The notes under the pieces: generated by a model
Told to the model about the DNA's origin: nothing
What the model saw: only the letters and a program-made list of their open reading frames with translations
Databases searched by the model: none
Translations under genes and position numbers: made by a program
NCBI GenBank assembly: GCA_013203315.1
Contig: JABMQJ010000012.1
Coordinates: 1-64,000 of the forward strand
Length of the DNA stretch: 64,000 nt
Reading direction: 5' to 3'
From: Candidatus Omnitrophota bacterium
GTDB lineage: Bacteria > Omnitrophota > Gorgyraeia > JABMRN01 > RBG-13-46-9
Shown here: piece after piece, positions 28,428 to 47,957 of the stretch
Position numbering within the stretch: the first letter of the stretch is position 1
Layout of the letters: each line of letters starts with the position of its first letter

Positions 28428-29438
28428 ATGAAAAAGAATAAAACACGAAAAAGAAAACCGCGTGAAGATCAAAATAGCTATAAAGTAGTTATTTCTGATT
28501 TAGGCATGAGCCCGTTTCGCATTATGCGCGCCTCTTTTGTGTTAATGGGCATACTTCCGCTTCTTATCATCTTCTACATAATCGTAGGACGCAAATTTCT
28601 TTTTGATATTTTTCTGGGGACCAACGGCCTGATAGCGTTTTTTGCTGTCATGATCTCGCTCATAGGATTTGTGTATGCTTACACTCTTATTGCGAATATG
28701 ATAAGAAAACTAGTCGTGTATTCTGCCGAACGCAAGCAAATAGACGAGGAGAAAACCGAACTACTTCTTGCGGTAAGCCATGATTTAAAAACACCTTTAA
28801 CCATACTTAAAACGGGAATGCGTAATCTCACCGACGGTATCGGTGGGGCTCTAAGCAAGGTTCACGTCGGAGTGGCCGATCACTGCCTTCGCGCCGTGGA
28901 CAGGATAAACCGTTTTATAGATGAACTTTTGGACTTCTCCAAGGTGGGTTTCATGAGAACGAATATAAAGCGCGACCTGATAGACCTCGGCGAAATGGTA
29001 AAGAATGAGGTAGATGCGATGTCTGATCTTGCCAGAGAGAACGGGCAGGATCTTCGGGTTAAGATTGAGGCCAAAGACGCAAAAGTATGGGCTGACGAGA
29101 AAAAAATGTCAAGAGCGGTCATGAATCTTCTTTCCAACGCCATAAAATATACCCCGAAGGGCGGCAAGATTAACGCGACGGTATCCACTGATGAAAATAC
29201 CACGAGATTCACGCTAATAAATACCGGTCCCGGAATTCAGCCAAACGAATTAGATAAAATATTTAAAAAATACGAAAGGCTTGACAGGCATTCCGATGTA
29301 GAAGGCACGGGGCTTGGGCTTTCTATCGTAAAAGAAATAATGGATTTACACAAAGGCCGCCTAACCGTAAAAAGCGAACCCGGCAAAGAGACAGAATTTG
29401 ATCTAATTCTACCCAGAGACTTACGAGAACGAGTATAG
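28428..29438 (+). CDS. Membrane histidine kinase with two closely spaced TM helices and no extracytoplasmic sensor
   Basis: SHDLKTP H-box, NLLSNAIKYT, NTGPGI (G1 Asp replaced by Asn), GTGLGL. Confidence 0.9.
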   Translation: MKKNKTRKRKPREDQNSYKVVISDLGMSPFRIMRASFVLMGILPLLIIFYIIVGRKFLFDIFLGTNGLIAFFAVMISLIGFVYAYTLIANMIRKLVVYSAERKQIDEEKTELLLAVSHDLKTPLTILKTGMRNLTDGIGGALSKVHVGVADHCLRAVDRINRFIDELLDFSKVGFMRTNIKRDLIDLGEMVKNEVDAMSDLARENGQDLRVKIEAKDAKVWADEKKMSRAVMNLLSNAIKYTPKGGKINATVSTDENTTRFTLINTGPGIQPNELDKIFKKYERLDRHSDVEGTGLGLSIVKEIMDLHKGRLTVKSEPGKETEFDLILPRDLRERV

Positions 29439-29462
29439 CGATAGCAGAAAGGCTATCTCCAT

Positions 29463-30473
29463 ATGGAAAGGGTAAGATACCAGATAGACCCGCATAATAG
29501 GCTCGTTATCCGGAAAGCTGCCAGAAAAACACCCCTTCCGTATTTTAGAAAAGTCCTGACAGGCCGTTTTAAAATCGATAACGATAATGAGCTCACCTAC
29601 CACGTAAAAACTCCCGTCCCGCATGGCAAAAATATTCCTCATCAGGTAAAGCTAAGAGGGCAATGGTCAGTAACAGATGATCATAATCTCCGTCTTACTT
29701 TTGACAAATGGGGAAGGGAGACTTTCGGCGATCGGCTTACCATAAAAGGCGATATCGTAGACACGAGTAAAAATTCATTCCTCTTTGCAATCACTACAAA
29801 AACAAAAGAAAATACCCGCTCAACATATATACTTAGACTTCAAGGGGTATGGCAGGCCGATAAAAATAACCGTCTTACATTTAGGATAACAAAGGAGGAT
29901 GGTAGGCATGATATTCTGGTATTAGACGGTATCTGGGAAATAAATAAAAACTATCAGATTATTTATAAATACGAAAAGGCGCATCTTGTAAGAAAACGAA
30001 AAAAACTTCACACCCTTATTTTTAAGGGCTATTGGGATATCTCCGGAAAAAAGCGTATATCATATATAATTGACGCAAAATCCGGTTCCGTGTTTAACTT
30101 TAAAACCGGCCTTGACATATTCAGGGCCGGTTATGTAAAATATGAACTAGGTGTAAAGCTCTCATACAGCCCTAAACCGGTTAAGCGCAAGATTACTCTT
30201 TCCGGTGCCTGGAAGATTAAGAGAAATCTAGGGCTTGTATTCGAAATGGCATACAAAAATCAAAAACTTCACGCCATAATTTTCGGCGCCGAAGCAAGAT
30301 TGACGGCAAGAGATATGGTATCTTTCAGGCTTAGAAATGAATTAAATAAAGACATGGGCGTAACCTTAAAGCTGTCGCATAAAATATTAAAAGGGGACGG
30401 CGAGGCTTTTTTAAAATTACTTAGGTCGAAAAAAGAATGCGCCGTATTAGCAGGTTCGGGGTGGAAATGGTAA
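29463..30473 (+). CDS. Hypothetical basic protein built of about 10 beta-hairpin repeats
   Basis: Long ORF with RBS AGAAAGG; repeated (L/I)-x-(L/F)-x-G-x-W-x-I-x3-N-x-L-x-(F/Y) units; C-terminal Trp; no signal peptide. Confidence 0.8.
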   Translation: MERVRYQIDPHNRLVIRKAARKTPLPYFRKVLTGRFKIDNDNELTYHVKTPVPHGKNIPHQVKLRGQWSVTDDHNLRLTFDKWGRETFGDRLTIKGDIVDTSKNSFLFAITTKTKENTRSTYILRLQGVWQADKNNRLTFRITKEDGRHDILVLDGIWEINKNYQIIYKYEKAHLVRKRKKLHTLIFKGYWDISGKKRISYIIDAKSGSVFNFKTGLDIFRAGYVKYELGVKLSYSPKPVKRKITLSGAWKIKRNLGLVFEMAYKNQKLHAIIFGAEARLTARDMVSFRLRNELNKDMGVTLKLSHKILKGDGEAFLKLLRSKKECAVLAGSGWKW

Positions 30474-45777: not shown

Positions 45778-47087
45778 TGCCTAACAAGCTAAAAAGAACA
45801 GGGACCAGAAACAAACGTATCAGCGCACGGGATAAATTTCTTAAGGGTATCCACCAAAAAAACCGCCAAGTGCTTGAGAAGAGCCTGTTTGAGCTCACCG
45901 CTGCATATAATATAGGAAGAGAAGCCTCTTACGCAGCCGATTTACGGAATTGTCTCAAGATTCTTGTGGACGGCATTGCGGATTTGATGTCTGTTGAAAT
46001 CGTATCGGTTATGCTAATGGATAGATATGAAGAGGGGCTTGTATTGGAATTCTCCAAGGGCCTGGGTAATGAAATAACCAAAGAAAAAGTGCGGTTGGGC
46101 CACGGTATTGCGGGCTGGATTGCCCAGACCGGGGAAGCGTTACTAATTAAAGATATAAAAAAGGATGTAAGATTTTCGAGGCGCGGGGGCAAATATTATA
46201 CGGATTCACTCCTGAGCGTGCCGCTCAAAATAAACAAGAAAGTTATCGGCGTAATAAACGTAAATAATAAGGTAACGAGAGATATTTTTGAAGAAGAAGA
46301 CATGGATGTACTGAGGAAGGTTGCGGGCCTTGCGGCAGCGGCCATTGAAAGCGCCAGGCTTCAGGAGGAGGCAGTGGCGCGCGACGAGACGCGGCTTGAA
46401 TTCATATCAAATATTTCGCACGAATTACGCACGCCACTTTCCTGTATAAACGAGGGCGTGTCCCTGGTTTTAGACGGAGTAACGGGCAAGATAAACAGTA
46501 AGCAAAAAGAGTTTCTGGCCTCGGTAAAGAATAACATTGAACGCCTGAAGCGCCTTGTCAGTGAACTGCTGGAGCTGGCCAAGGTAGAGTCGCGGATTAC
46601 ACGAATGAGAAGGAGCCTTTTTGATGTGGTGCAATTGATAGAAGGGGTTGTTGCCTCAATGGGGCCCCTCGTAAAAGACAAAAAGATTTCGCTTAAAAAG
46701 ACGTTGCCCGATAAAAATATTCAGATCTGGGCAGATCCGGATAAACTGAGCCAGGTTCTTACCAATTTGATTGATAACGCCATGAAGTATAATAAACCCA
46801 AGGGCATCGTGGAGGTCAGTATGGATGAGTCAGCCAAGACTGTTAATATCAATATACGCGACACAGGCATTGGCATACCGGAAGAAGATATAAAAAAGAT
46901 TTTTGACAGATTTTACCGCGTAGAGGCCTCGGCAAAAAGCAAAACCCGCGGCGCCGGGATAGGCTTGTCGATTATAAACGAAATCATAAAAAAGCACAGG
47001 GGAAACATTTCTGTCGATTCCGAGGTTGGCAAGGGAAGCAGATTTACCGTAACGCTGCCGAAGGACCTGAGGGCGGAAAATAGATAA
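45777..47087 (+). CDS. Cytoplasmic GAF-domain histidine kinase
   Basis: GAF (GIAGWIAQTGE, SLLSVPL, IGVINVNNK), SHELRTP, NLIDNAMKY, GAGIGL. Confidence 0.92.
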   Translation: MPNKLKRTGTRNKRISARDKFLKGIHQKNRQVLEKSLFELTAAYNIGREASYAADLRNCLKILVDGIADLMSVEIVSVMLMDRYEEGLVLEFSKGLGNEITKEKVRLGHGIAGWIAQTGEALLIKDIKKDVRFSRRGGKYYTDSLLSVPLKINKKVIGVINVNNKVTRDIFEEEDMDVLRKVAGLAAAAIESARLQEEAVARDETRLEFISNISHELRTPLSCINEGVSLVLDGVTGKINSKQKEFLASVKNNIERLKRLVSELLELAKVESRITRMRRSLFDVVQLIEGVVASMGPLVKDKKISLKKTLPDKNIQIWADPDKLSQVLTNLIDNAMKYNKPKGIVEVSMDESAKTVNINIRDTGIGIPEEDIKKIFDRFYRVEASAKSKTRGAGIGLSIINEIIKKHRGNISVDSEVGKGSRFTVTLPKDLRAENR

Positions 47088-47957
47088 GTGGAAAAGAAGA
47101 AAATATTAATTATCGAGGATGACGAAGACTTACTAGAAGTTCTGCAAGTGAGGCTCTCCAGCCAGGGATACGAAGTTCATACGAATATAGGTAAGAGGGA
47201 AGTTCTCCGGGAGATACGAAGCATATGGCCGGATCTTATTCTTCTTGATATAACATTGCCTGAAATAAGCGGCCTGGAAATAAAAGCGGAATTAAATAAA
47301 AATACTCATACCGCCAGCATTCCTGTAATATTTTTAACCGGCAAAGACTCGGTTTCCGATAAGGTGAAAGGCCTTGGGCTCGGCGCGGACGATTATATAG
47401 CGAAGCCATTTGACTCAAAGGAGCTGATGTCTCGGATTGAGGCCGCGCTAAGACGGAGAGGTTTTTACGAAGAGATTTCCATGACTGACGGCCTTACGGG
47501 GGTGTATAATGTGAAATTTTTTCAAAAACAGATTACATTATTTTTTAATATAGCCAAAAGATATAAAAAGATATTTGCGCTTATAATCATTGATATCGAT
47601 AATCTGAAAGACATAAATGATACATACGGGCACCTGGCAGGCGATTTTATTTTGAAAGAATTTTCTTCATTAACTAAAAAGACATTGAGAAAATCTGATA
47701 TACTTGCAAGATACGGAGGAGATGAGTTCGCCATTATTATGCCTGAGACTGACGAAGAGCATGCCGCTTACGCGATTGACAGGTTAAAGCAGAACATAAA
47801 CGGAAAGCCGTTTGTATTCGGGGATAAAAAACAGGAGTTAAGATTTAACATTAGCGTTGGTATGACGACCTACAGGGACACGCTAACAAGCGAGCTCGAA
47901 ATGTTCGGGGAAGCCGACAAAAAGCTCTATCGGGATAAGCATAAAGCGAGTAAATAA
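47088..47957 (+). CDS. Response regulator diguanylate cyclase (REC-GGDEF, WspR/PleD-like)
   Basis: Receiver (IEDD, LLD, FLT, KPF), DGLTGVYN, INDTYGH, RKSD I-site, intact RYGGDEF. Confidence 0.92.
   Translation: MEKKKILIIEDDEDLLEVLQVRLSSQGYEVHTNIGKREVLREIRSIWPDLILLDITLPEISGLEIKAELNKNTHTASIPVIFLTGKDSVSDKVKGLGLGADDYIAKPFDSKELMSRIEAALRRRGFYEEISMTDGLTGVYNVKFFQKQITLFFNIAKRYKKIFALIIIDIDNLKDINDTYGHLAGDFILKEFSSLTKKTLRKSDILARYGGDEFAIIMPETDEEHAAYAIDRLKQNINGKPFVFGDKKQELRFNISVGMTTYRDTLTSELEMFGEADKKLYRDKHKASK

Follow-up and report, generated by a model that had tools for sequence, protein, structure and literature searches.

Several described systems resemble parts of the locus analysed here. PilB/MshE ATPases are under c-di-GMP control through the MshEN domain (PMC5013675), the kinase SgmT carries a c-di-GMP-binding GGDEF I-site (PMC3509222), and a classical kinase acts on PilB via a single-domain receiver that binds PilB, either EmvR (PMC11973254) or DrdR (PMC13507683). 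Modular lectin pilins have also been described (PMC8179133), and Omnitrophota clusters of the present kind are classed as type IVa pili (T4aP) in PMC10066038.

Here, we analysed a 64-kb window, that is, a whole stretch of 64,000 nucleotides from an uncultured Omnitrophota bacterium, using ORFs, Pfam, NCBIfam and translations. A pilus cluster together with kinase, receiver and c-di-GMP genes occupies positions 28428–47957 on the + strand. The locus resembles MshE in the MshEN domain of its PilB-type ATPase, SgmT in the GGDEF I-site on its Cache kinase, EmvR/DrdR in the single-domain receivers beside pilB, and PleD/WspR in its REC-GGDEF cyclase. The original prediction was partly supported. Every gene in its inventory was found on the + strand and given coordinates, and its tip pilin, c-di-GMP parts and chemosensory relic stand, but a conserved pilus-signalling link, special gene junctions and the replacement of a chemosensory core by kinases are weakened or find no support. 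The term “undescribed system” is likewise an overstatement, since each element has published precedent (MshE, SgmT, EmvR/DrdR, WspR, modular lectin pilins and the Omnitrophota T4aP). We consider the chances about even that the locus encodes a chromosomal T4aP-like, CBM32-tipped adhesin pilus, likely tuned post-translationally by the neighbouring two-component and c-di-GMP genes; the functional wiring of the signalling genes to the pilus is plausible but unproven.

The pilus genes

The core of the locus is a type IVa-like pilus operon, composed of pilB, pilC, a small two-TM gene, a major pilin gene, three minor pilin genes, a pilM-pilN fusion, pilO and a pilP-like gene, all of which, like the other genes described below, lie on the + strand. 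The PilC/GspF platform protein (39583–40803) contains two T2SSF repeats (Pfam, 207 bits). The ORF that separates pilC from the major pilin gene (40813–41031) encodes a small conserved protein of 72 aa with two TM helices, which the original prediction had overlooked. This protein is 42% identical (E 8e-21) to the product of the ORF at the same position (4842–5063) in the locus of a close relative, L001. The GspG/PilA-like major pilin candidate (41047–41505; Pfam N_methyl, 37.4 bits) has a class III signal peptide, G↓FTLIE. Minor pilin 2 (41522–41878; G↓FTLLE) is GspI/PilV-like, with a Pfam N_methyl match and sub-threshold NCBIfam matches to GspI, PilV and ComGE; we re-set its start to the GTG at 41522, downstream of an AAGAGGG ribosome-binding site, as the most likely one. 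Minor pilin 3 (41880–42398; G↓ITLIE) is GspJ/ComGF-like, with a sub-threshold N_methyl match (Pfam, 19.7 bits).

The PilM-PilN fusion (43193–44797) matches PilM_2 (124 bits) and PilN (34.7 bits) in Pfam and exceeds the cut-off of the TIGR01175 pilM model (144.6 bits against 133). It consists of a cytoplasmic actin-like domain, one TM helix (386–417) and a periplasmic PilN domain, a GspL-like topology. Next come PilO (44817–45344; Pfam PilO, 36 bits, cut-off 22) and a small bitopic protein (45346–45777), composed of an N-terminal TM helix, a disordered linker and a C-terminal beta domain. The gene for the latter is present as predicted, but its identity as a PilP/GspC-like candidate comes from sub-threshold matches (Pfam T2SSC, E 0.0058; NCBIfam GspC models, E 3e-5 and 7e-4). 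Its nearest ESM Atlas clusters are without names and mostly from Omnitrophota, and its AF2 single-sequence model has a pLDDT of 59.6, too low to use.

Among the + strand ORFs of at least 110 aa and two − strand ORFs of the window, nothing matched MCP, CheA, CheB, PilT, PilQ or PilD, as had been predicted; the 64 kb lack a secretin, a prepilin peptidase and a retraction ATPase.

The CBM32 tip pilin

The fourth pilin (42391–43191), which most likely starts at the ATG at 42391, joins a PilX/GspK-like module to a CBM32 or F5/8 type C (discoidin) domain (Pfam F5_F8_type_C, 66.2 bits). The pilin module lacks Glu5 and matches PilX_N below threshold (Pfam, 21.4 bits). In the AF2 model (pLDDT 88.1), a helix (2–63) and a sheet (73–125) are followed by a beta-sandwich (130–250). 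The top Foldseek match is the chitosan-binding CBM32 4zy9_A (E 4e-13, TMt 0.78), and of the 336 matches at E ≤ 0.001, those listed at the top are to CBM32 and to lectin modules that bind fucose/galactose. The profile, the model and the fold matches thus bear out the proposed glycan-binding tip pilin, as a prediction of binding. Among 77 homologous protein clusters, PF00754 is present in 74; of the 77, four bear the name of discoidin domain-containing proteins from Omnitrophota/Omnitrophica/Gorgyraea, and two that of PilX.

Kinases, receivers and cyclase

Signalling genes account for 9/21 within the locus versus 2/43 outside it (Fisher p 3.8e-4). Histidine kinase 1 (28428–29438; Pfam HATPase_c 99.7 bits, HisKA 36.6 bits) has two N-terminal TM helices (29–92 in the TM scan) separated by a very short loop and followed by HisKA and HATPase_c; Pfam and the TM scan recognised no sensor domain in it. 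Its membership of the pilus system is that of a candidate, and unproven. The second kinase (33063–36311) has the Pfam architecture dCache-HAMP-PAS-PAS-HisKA-HATPase plus a degenerate GGDEF domain, and TM segments 10–42 and 321–362 flank its periplasmic dCache. At its C-terminal end TGDLI replaces GGDEF, with an RxxD I-site, RRAD, 5 residues upstream. All four clusters of its orthologues, the window's own included (62–100% identity), retain RRAD unchanged and have a degenerate GGDEF, which makes this protein a candidate c-di-GMP-binding kinase. The third, cytoplasmic kinase (45777–47087; GAF-HisKA-HATPase by Pfam) is 39% identical to the Cache kinase in the kinase core, and there is a 1-nt overlap between its start and the pilP-like stop. 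The PleD/WspR-like diguanylate cyclase that follows (47088–47957; Pfam GGDEF 135 bits, REC 94.8 bits) scores 157.7 bits against TIGR00254 (cut-off 37.4) and has an intact GGDEF motif, with an RxxD I-site, RKSD, five residues upstream.

Directly 5′ of pilB, four stand-alone receivers span 36339–37886: REC1 (36339–36713; Pfam Response_reg 101 bits), REC2 (36732–37115; 88.6 bits), REC3 (37117–37494; 96.4 bits) and REC4 (37506–37886; 102 bits), which ends in a 4-nt overlap with the start of pilB. REC1 is the most divergent, with 33–37% identity to REC2–4; REC2 is 44–51% identical to REC3 and REC4, which share 53% with each other. All four keep the acidic pocket, the phospho-acceptor Asp, the Thr/Ser and the Lys. 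All five receivers lack a DNA-binding output and must hence act via proteins or c-di-GMP. Phosphodiesterases of the EAL or HD-GYP type and Hpt proteins are absent from the locus.

PilB and its possible regulators

How might these proteins reach the pilus? The PilB-type extension ATPase (37883–39583; Pfam T2SSE 470 bits) carries an N-terminal MshEN domain (77 bits), a Walker ATPase core and a tetracysteine motif. It also passes the NCBIfam c-di-GMP motif model NF053729 (51.7 bits, cut-off 38), and its N-terminal domain is closest to PilF and T4aP PilB, followed by MshE (E 5e-39 to 1e-20), with XpsE far behind at 5e-6. Its two 24-residue MshEN motifs meet 8/11 and 10/11 of the constrained positions; the first begins SLG, as against the consensus RLG, whose place RLR takes in the second. 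The relaxed c-di-GMP motif of PMC5013675 fits neither of them, nor does it fit 87 of 91 N-terminal PilB regions from the loci retrieved, and this motif test therefore discriminates poorly. The c-di-GMP parts predicted to adjoin the pilus genes—the cyclase with its I-site, the pseudo-GGDEF I-site on the kinase and MshEN on PilB—are all in place.

The predicted REC4–PilB complex scored 0.42, against 0.07 for the best of 3 controls; contacts agreed by at least 94% between runs, and the partner pLDDT was at least 81. This is a weak pass. Of 157 solved complexes, 116 passed the same mark, as did 2 of 215 mismatched pairs; the passes at 0.60 or under came from only 18 of the 157 and from both of the mismatched pairs. 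The complex prediction thus lends weak support to a REC4–PilB contact.

Are the signalling genes only neighbours?

The foremost alternative, which we regard as a serious though less probable reading, is an ordinary pilus operon with kinases, receivers and cyclase that act independently on other targets, such as global c-di-GMP or other protein partners. The comparison with L001 and L051, the only two close relatives that could be retrieved, speaks in its favour. The pilus gene order of L001 is that of the window, the small two-TM gene included, with identities of 74% for PilB, 59% for PilC, 60% for the PilM-PilN protein (the same fusion), 44% for PilO, 39% for minor pilin 2 and 36% over 72 aa for minor pilin 3; for the major pilin, identity amounts to 58% in L001 and 56% in L051. 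Upstream of pilB, receivers are found in neither relative (0/2): L001 has an XRE HTH gene and a saccharopine dehydrogenase gene, and L051 a weak PilZ-like ORF (18.3 bits, cut-off 22.5). The PilX-like pilin of L001 has no discoidin domain. The original prediction had named unlinked genes in relatives as evidence against itself, and these regions, at n=2, show no such link. In distant loci, the signalling genes adjoining PilB vary (ANTAR, LuxR and CheB/R/Y/X), and the arrangement in the window looks lineage-specific.

Gene spacing points the same way. The overlapping or abutting junctions had been read as special, but junctions of 20 nt or less make up 15/21 inside the locus versus 31/38 outside it, where, for example, asd overlaps truA. 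In a compact, one-stranded window with tight junctions throughout, those of the locus say little. Moreover, promoter-like sites lie in three large gaps, 5′ of histidine kinase 1 (28369–28397, with a terminator-like site at 28346–28362), of cheR (31237–31265) and of the major pilin gene (40987–41016), which suggests three or more transcription units rather than one operon, although such sites in total are at chance level (40 found, 36.9 expected). The departure of the PilB MshEN motif from consensus also suits mere adjacency.

Against this reading, the pilus genes have signalling genes on either side, the end of REC4 runs into pilB, and the genes for the pilP-like protein, the GAF kinase and the cyclase follow one another with an overlap or no gap. 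The c-di-GMP-type domain on PilB, the lack of DNA-binding outputs and the weak pass of the REC4–PilB fold also count against it, and in a probable close relative the Cache kinase and the CBM32 pilin seem, on indirect evidence, to be kept together on one 16.1-kb contig (86–87% identity).

Remnants of a chemosensory module

Upstream of the Cache kinase, an intact gene (31352–32866) encodes a CheR methyltransferase fused to C-terminal TPR repeats (Pfam CheR 198 bits, TPR_2/TPR_19/TPR_8), covering positions 1–191 of the 195 of the CheR profile. The adjacent remnant ORF of 59 codons (32869–33048), analysed by translation, REC profile and PDB search, consists of an initial ~16 codons from a cheW-like gene, continued in frame by the final ~43 codons of a gene for a stand-alone receiver. 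Its residues 17–54 align to positions 74–111 of the 111 in the REC profile (E 2.8e-4), and this part is 63–78% identical to the C-termini of six receivers of ~120 aa, among which the sole named hit is from Candidatus Omnitrophica. With the N-terminal 21 aa as query, CheW alone was matched among 177,635 PDB sequences (residues 3–18; 8c5v_E and 2ho9_A, E 0.13 and 0.18), a weak but specific assignment. These matches agree with the predicted CheW/REC scar beside CheR-TPR, and the pair reads as the relic of a partly decayed Che-like module.

It had further been proposed that classical kinases replaced an MCP-CheA core, forming a self-contained, undescribed circuit with a c-di-GMP feedback loop dedicated to the lectin pilus. 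The relic does place a Che-like module at exactly this site in the past, every part of the loop is present and apparently intact, and the ORFs scanned lack MCP, CheA and CheB. However, the scar indicates decay or loss rather than functional replacement, neither L001 nor L051 has the arrangement, MCP and CheA may lie elsewhere in the genome beyond the window, and all of the wiring elements are already described in other bacteria; we consider this reading improbable.

Very improbable is a T2SS-like machine or periplasmic pseudopilus, with the upstream signal-peptide protease as a possible substrate: PilB scores above the GspE equivalog cut-off (TIGR02533, 664 against 630 bits) and below that of PilB (TIGR02538, 651 against 676), the fusion has a GspL-like topology, the minor pilins and the small bitopic protein have sub-threshold GspI- and GspC-type matches, and PilT is absent from the window, but PilB has an N-domain of the PilB/PilF/MshE type, the Pfam and TIGR matches are to PilM, PilN and PilO rather than to GspL or GspM, GspD and GspH are absent, the CBM32 adhesin module of the tip pilin suits an exposed filament, and such Omnitrophota clusters are, as noted above, classed as T4aP.

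Proposed mechanism

We thus favour the adhesin pilus tuned after translation. At its tip the filament would carry a complex of three pilins, whose distal subunit displays the CBM32 sugar-binding module, and with such a subunit the pilus would serve as an adhesin for glycans of a surface, host or prey cell. The two-component and c-di-GMP genes would most likely tune pilus assembly. The GAF kinase may phosphorylate the adjoining REC-GGDEF protein, which would then produce c-di-GMP for the MshEN domain of PilB and also, as feedback, for the pseudo-GGDEF I-site of the Cache kinase. The Cache kinase, on sensing an extracytoplasmic ligand, would load the four output-less receivers, which could contact PilB or the platform directly or act as phosphate sinks. 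CheR-TPR and the scar would be leftovers of the decayed module, and in relatives the pilus core is retained, with other regulators 5′ of pilB and another module on the tip pilin.

Two further upstream genes

The signal-peptide protease (30437–31207) does not belong to the PilD-type (A24) prepilin peptidases; it is a retropepsin-like (clan AA) aspartic protease (Pfam gag-asp_proteas 66.9 bits, Asp_protease_2 65.2 bits; TIGR02281 52.7 bits, under the cut-off of 57.95), with an N-terminal signal/TM segment (TM 6–38) and a DTGA-type active-site motif. The preceding gene (29463–30473) encodes a beta-rich repeat protein of 336 aa with six copies of an hxGxWxh motif, without a signal peptide, a TM helix or a Pfam or NCBIfam family above cut-off. 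Its nearest ESM Atlas clusters (scores 0.98–0.99) are unnamed or “lipocalin-like”, and Candidatus Omnitrophota is their commonest phylum.

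Gene content of the locus

The signalling and pilus genes lie on the plus strand at 28428–47957, between truA and an NSS transporter gene. The gene inventory of the original prediction was confirmed by Pfam and NCBIfam scans and by direct reading of the translations, which also placed the four stand-alone receivers (REC1–REC4, 36339–37886) directly before pilB (37883–39583), as had been claimed. Three HisKA kinases are encoded: HK1 (28428–29438) is membrane-anchored and without a sensor domain, the Cache kinase (33063–36311) has a dCache-HAMP-PAS-PAS arrangement, and the third carries a GAF domain (45777–47087). 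The other genes encode a CheR-TPR protein, PilB with an MshEN domain, PilC, four pilins, a PilM-PilN fusion, PilO, a PilP/GspC-like protein and a REC-GGDEF cyclase (47088–47957). The starts of pilin 2 and pilin 4 are probably at 41522 and 42391, respectively, which corrects the first reading. A gene for a 72-residue protein with two transmembrane segments (40813–41031), absent from the original list, lies between pilC and the major pilin gene (pilin 1, 41047–41505). Its product matches no family, and it aligns (42% identity, E 8e-21) with an ORF in the same place in L001, one of the two closest PilB loci. It is conserved between the two loci and could be a small part of such pili that has so far gone unrecognised. 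The 336-residue repeat protein encoded at 29463–30473 has no signal peptide and matches several unnamed ESM Atlas clusters, among which Omnitrophota is the commonest phylum; its predicted models are poor (pLDDT 0.45) and only loosely resemble a beta-barrel (TM <0.4).

Is the clustering meaningful? Signalling genes account for 9 of the 21 genes in the locus and for 2 of the 43 elsewhere in the window (p 3.8e-4). The overlapping junctions, previously put forward as a sign of linkage, carry little weight: spacings of 20 nt or less occur at 15/21 junctions inside the locus and at 31/38 outside, and the cyclase gene abuts the unrelated NSS transporter gene equally tightly. HK1, cheR and the major pilin gene are each preceded by a gap with a promoter-like site among the best of the scan, and the total site count is at chance level. 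No sigma-54 promoter precedes the pilin 1 gene (30 loose matches in the window, 23.7 expected).

A type IVa-like pilus machine

Which kind of machine does the locus encode? PilB and PilC score 470 bits with T2SSE and 207 bits with T2SSF, respectively, giving the extension ATPase and platform of a type IVa pilus (T4aP). Against the PDB, the N-domain of PilB is closest to Thermus PilF (E 5e-39), followed by the T4aP PilB proteins of Geobacter and Myxococcus (about 1e-30) and MshE (5htl, 1.3e-20), while the T2SS ATPase XpsE reaches just 5e-6. The PilM_2 (124 bits), PilN (34.7 bits) and PilO (36 bits) models of Pfam all pass their cut-offs, as does TIGR01175 on the PilM-PilN fusion (144.6 bits; cut-off 133). 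Pilins 1–3 have a class III signal peptide of the T4aP pattern (G|F/I-xxx-E), here G|(F/I)TL(I/L)E. Pilin 4 is PilX/GspK-like and lacks Glu5, a trait of tip subunits such as GspK. Because the N-domain of PilB matches PilF, T4aP PilB and MshE, and the models for PilM, PilN and PilO pass their cut-offs, we read the machine as T4aP-like.

The alternative is a type II secretion system (T2SS). The ATPase passes the GspE equivalog model (664 bits; cut-off 630) and falls just below that for PilB (TIGR02538, 651 bits; cut-off 676), the pseudopilin-like set recalls G, I, J and K, and the PilM-PilN fusion has a GspL-like topology. The defining parts of a T2SS, which are a GspE with an N1E domain, GspL/GspM, GspC and the GspD secretin, were not found: the ATPase carries a PilB/MshE-type N-domain, GspL/GspM fit less well than the models for PilM, PilN and PilO, and the Pfam and NCBIfam scans of the window gave no match for GspL, GspM or GspD, a sub-threshold GspC and no GspH. 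The T4aP-like assignment holds despite the GspE score, the narrow miss of the PilB model and the GspL-like topology of the fusion. The PilP-like protein itself gives GspC/T2SSC matches only, all sub-threshold, and its single-sequence AF2 model has a pLDDT of 59.6, too low to support a fold search. The PilQ secretin, the PilD prepilin peptidase and the PilT retraction ATPase had no match among the ORFs scanned in the 64-kb window. The clan AA protease was considered as the missing prepilin peptidase and ruled out, as it belongs to a retropepsin-like family and not to A24.

Machines of the same kind are described from the Omnitrophota, the probable phylum of this locus: in the available text of Seymour et al. 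(2023; PMC10066038), T4aP genes are reported from most genomes of all Omnitrophota classes, and attachment to host cells is proposed for them. That text mentions discoidin for giant ORFs only and mentions neither a CBM32 pilin nor c-di-GMP or two-component genes. An F-type ATPase often adjoins the T4aP genes in the genomes it describes, but none is present in this window.

A modular pilin with a CBM32 domain

Pilin 4 (42391–43191) combines, in one polypeptide, a pilin module and an additional non-pilus domain, as in modular type IV pilins. F5_F8_type_C scores 66 bits, and PilX_N is sub-threshold. The AF2 model of this 266-residue protein, built from an alignment of 43 sequences (pLDDT 88.1), begins with a long helix, continues with a small sheet and then forms a beta-sandwich of its own, the CBM32 module (about residues 125–255). 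In Foldseek, the best matches of the sandwich are the chitosan-binding CBM32 modules 4zy9_A and 4zxe (E 4e-13 to 7e-12, TMt 0.74–0.78, identity 32–33%), followed by galactose- and fucose-binding modules; 336 matches reach E <= 0.001. The family is broad: among 1,146 candidates, 77 clusters match at E <= 0.001, with full-length identities from 40% to 86%, and PF00754 is present in 74 of them. The named homologues are labelled Omnitrophota, Omnitrophica or Gorgyraea.

The arrangement resembles that of PilB (vWA) and PilC (lectin) of Streptococcus sanguinis, in which a ligand-binding module is grafted onto an N-terminal pilin module. In such pilins, the graft is presented at the pilus tip and carbohydrate-binding modules are among the commonest grafts (PMC8179133; see also PMC9934059 for S. 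sanguinis and PMC6048534 for CofB of ETEC). Pilin 4 differs from these in that the graft is a CBM32/F5-8 type C domain on a PilX/GspK-like module, in an uncultured and presumably diderm phylum; sugar binding is predicted from its sequence and model. Searches of the main text of open-access papers and preprints brought up no description of a CBM32 or discoidin pilin, or of pilus-linked c-di-GMP or two-component genes, in Omnitrophota.

Comparison with related loci

The contig scan yielded 80 PilB loci, of which two are close: L001 (PilB identity 74%, titled Candidatus Omnitrophota) and L051 (72%, labelled Planctomycetia). The nearest ESM Atlas clusters of two of the locus proteins have Omnitrophota as the commonest phylum. 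Together with L001 and the named homologues of pilin 4 and of the receiver part of the CheW/REC scar, they make Omnitrophota the probable phylum of the window, the label of L051 notwithstanding. In L001, the order is pilB, pilC, the small two-TM gene, the major pilin, two minor pilins, a PilX-like pilin, pilMN and pilO, where the contig ends. The genes before pilB are a saccharopine dehydrogenase and a 65-residue XRE-type HTH gene (1656–1853) in L001, and in L051 a 5′-truncated ORF (3–239) with a weak PilZ match (E 0.003, below the cut-off). The position before pilB, filled by a PilZ-like protein in L051, an XRE HTH protein in L001 and four receivers here, suggests a “plug-in” regulatory slot. 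At the other end of the machine, the PilX-like pilin of L001 (6715–7794, 359 residues) aligns with pilin 4 in the pilin module only. Its C-terminal module of about 240 residues is different and has no Pfam family; a search of the PDB with it returned one match, carbonic anhydrase 13 (E = 1), which is not meaningful. This sequence comparison suggests module swapping at the pilus tip. Across these loci, the pilus core is thus conserved, and the regulator before pilB and the tip module are interchangeable.

For an 86% homologue of a pilin (P0009) and an 87% homologue of a kinase (P0086), both from one source, the only contig recorded is in each case 16,111 nt long, an indirect hint that the linkage is conserved in a much closer relative. 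The other 78 of the 80 loci, at 41–57% PilB identity, belong to other phyla. Near their pilB genes lie signalling genes of unrelated types, among them regulators of the ANTAR and LuxR kinds, hybrid kinases and one set of CheB/R/Y/X. The distant loci were dropped as evidence for or against a conserved receiver-pilB cassette.

The cyclase and the candidate c-di-GMP receptors

The REC-GGDEF cyclase (47088–47957) retains an intact GGDEF motif, the RxxD I-site RKSD five residues upstream and the residues of a phosphorylatable receiver. It scores 157.7 bits with TIGR00254 (cut-off 37.4) and has the features of an active diguanylate cyclase of the PleD/WspR type, as judged from its translation. The gene content of the locus includes no phosphodiesterase and no Hpt protein.

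Two proteins are candidate receptors of its product. In the C-terminal GGDEF-like domain of the Cache kinase (33063–36311), TGDLI replaces GGDEF and RRAD is retained; in all four clusters of orthologues (62–100% identity, the window's own included), RRAD is invariant and GGDEF degenerate. A kinase with a degenerate GGDEF domain and an RxxD I-site is the combination seen in SgmT of Myxococcus xanthus, and c-di-GMP binding by the Cache kinase is predicted. SgmT shares its architecture, a histidine kinase with a C-terminal GGDEF-type domain; according to the available text of PMC3509222, this domain is a c-di-GMP receptor through its I-site, and SgmT affects T4P-dependent behaviour. SgmT is a hybrid kinase whose partner, DigR, is a DNA-binding regulator (PMC3509222), whereas the Cache kinase takes its input through dCache-HAMP-PAS and has neither a fused receiver nor, within the locus, a partner that binds DNA.

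The second candidate is the MshEN domain of PilB. It contains two tandem motifs of 24 residues with the correct five-residue spacing, in which 8/11 and 10/11 of the constrained positions agree; the deviations are Ser for the first Arg, Gln/Glu for Leu/Gln and Arg for the second Gly. The NCBIfam model NF053729 for the c-di-GMP motif scores 51.7 bits (cut-off 38). A relaxed regular expression for the motif had no full match in PilB, but it also had none in 87 of the 91 PilB N-termini of the loci, so it is not discriminating. The same N-terminal domain occurs on the extension ATPases MshE/PilB and Thermus PilF (PMC11731258), and c-di-GMP binding is documented for the MshEN domains of MshE/PilB-type ATPases (Wang et al. 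2016; PMC5013675). For the PilB of this locus, c-di-GMP binding is uncertain.

Stand-alone receivers before pilB

REC2–REC4 are paralogues with 44–53% identity, and REC1 is more distant. A search of the protein library with REC4 gave 930,319 matches, the best 150 of which are mostly multi-receiver proteins. These best-scoring relatives (P0089–P0238, from a library of 1.8 billion proteins) mostly have 2 to 6 receiver domains per chain, and many exceed 1,000 residues. As multi-receiver matches are of no use as orthologues, REC4 was folded without an alignment.

In the complex prediction, full-length PilB (23-row alignment) and REC4 scored 0.42, and the best of three controls scored 0.07. Of 157 solved complexes, 116 attained the same mark as this pair, as did 2 of 215 mismatched pairs, with scores at or below 0.60 in 18 of the 157 solved complexes and in both mismatches that passed. 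The runs agreed in at least 94% of contacts, with a partner pLDDT of at least 81. The modelling weakly supports binding of REC4 to PilB.

Precedents for such binding come from Xanthomonas, where two receivers that lack an output domain, EmvR and DrdR, attach to PilB and alter its ATPase activity; a further partner of EmvR is the classical kinase ColS (PMC11973254, PMC13507683). The EmvR/ColS path, as would be the case here, reaches the pilus motor by classical two-component signalling, with no MCP-CheA involved. EmvR and DrdR are described there as orphans, not encoded beside pilB, whereas the four receivers here directly precede it. Judging from the sequences, the Cache kinase and the four receivers may be a split form of multi-receiver hybrid kinases.

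Remnant of a chemosensory module

The CheW/REC scar reported in the original prediction is real. It is an ORF of 59 residues (32869–33048), immediately 3′ of the intact cheR-TPR gene. The C-terminal ~43 residues come from the end of a receiver (positions 74–111 of 111 of the Pfam REC profile, E 2.8e-4) with 63–78% identity to six receivers of about 120 residues, the sole named one labelled Candidatus Omnitrophica. The receiver was of a subfamily that ends in a conserved “...GADDYCAKTSD” and differs from REC1–REC4. The first 21 residues have two matches among 177,635 PDB sequences, both CheW (E 0.13 and 0.18), which are weak but specific; they fall at the start of the CheW domain and leave a cheW remnant of about 16 codons. 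A tblastn search of the loci with the 17-residue CheW-like peptide gave nothing useful. The simplest reading of the sequence is that an in-frame deletion would have taken out two thirds of a receiver gene, most of cheW and whatever lay between the two. The scar shows that a Che-like module was formerly here and has decayed. A takeover of its function by classical kinases, as proposed in the original prediction, is not shown by the scar.

The locus invites comparison with the Wsp, Chp and Frz chemosensory systems. The CheR with TPR and the REC-GGDEF protein with an I-site resemble WspC and WspR, and receivers acting on pili would resemble PilG and PilH. In contrast to those systems, the kinases here are classical HisKA proteins, only 16 cheW codons survive, and the window contains no match to MCPsignal, CheA or CheB, so that of the chemosensory genes CheR is present and the MCP-CheA-CheW core is not. 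A present-day substrate of CheR would depend on genes beyond the window. Some Omnitrophota proteins combine CheR with a ComFB c-di-NMP receptor domain (PMC12448109); the Pfam scan detected no ComFB domain here.

Possible control of the pilus

How could these parts act on the pilus? For control through c-di-GMP and receivers, precedents make each inferred step reasonable: MshEN (PMC5013675), SgmT (PMC3509222) and EmvR/DrdR (PMC11973254, PMC13507683). A single closed circuit goes further, and as a whole we consider it unlikely. In this Omnitrophota lineage, the decayed chemosensory cluster would have been rewired: the dCache kinase with its c-di-GMP-sensing pseudo-GGDEF domain, four dedicated receivers docking on PilB and the pair of GAF kinase and REC-GGDEF cyclase would make a closed phospho/c-di-GMP feedback circuit, whose sole job would be to deploy the CBM32-tipped pilus when the ultra-small cell contacts the glycan coat of its host or prey. 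If this were true, the locus would sense contact and switch on attachment in an organism living as an episymbiont or predator.

The general concepts, namely modular lectin pilins, c-di-GMP-gated pilus ATPases, I-site kinases and receivers acting on PilB, are already described, and the general understanding of pili and c-di-GMP is unchanged by these findings. Their interest lies in the Omnitrophota, which are uncultured and mostly ultra-small; for many of them, a life on other cells is suspected. Their attachment is ascribed first of all to type IV pili, as the foremost candidate (PMC10066038). For this idea, the conserved family of CBM32-bearing pilins provides a concrete, testable part for ligand recognition, and the differences in the tip module from one close relative to another are what a role in partner specificity would predict. 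The kinases, receivers and cyclase on either side are a compact candidate set for switching on attachment, and the cheW'-'REC scar is a record of a chemosensory cluster eroding beside a pilus operon.

Genomic surroundings

The 64-kb window is a compact chromosomal stretch with a GC content of ~0.44 and nearly all genes on the plus strand. Among gene-sized ORFs with family matches, all but two are on this strand, and both GC skew and AT skew are positive across the whole window. Genes of unrelated function overlap or abut throughout, asd/truA being one example. The upstream neighbours are housekeeping genes (priA, fmt, gap, pgk, tpi, secG, an opp transporter, trehalose genes, leuCDB, asd and truA), and downstream lie the NSS transporter, rplM, rpsI and arg and dap genes. 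The Rfam scan of the whole window found zero RNA families at the gathering score. A second, separate signalling pair, a HisKA/HATPase kinase and a stand-alone receiver with 36–40% identity to REC1–REC4, is encoded at 8879–10441 between gap and a glycogen/starch synthase gene. Two neighbouring paralogous GalT-like genes (galactose-1-phosphate uridylyltransferase/DUF4921) lie at 5823–7851. The genes at 19582–23696 encode a GT20 trehalose-6-P synthase, a trehalose phosphatase, a DUF5752 protein and a TreT-type trehalose synthase, a set that may bear on stress tolerance.
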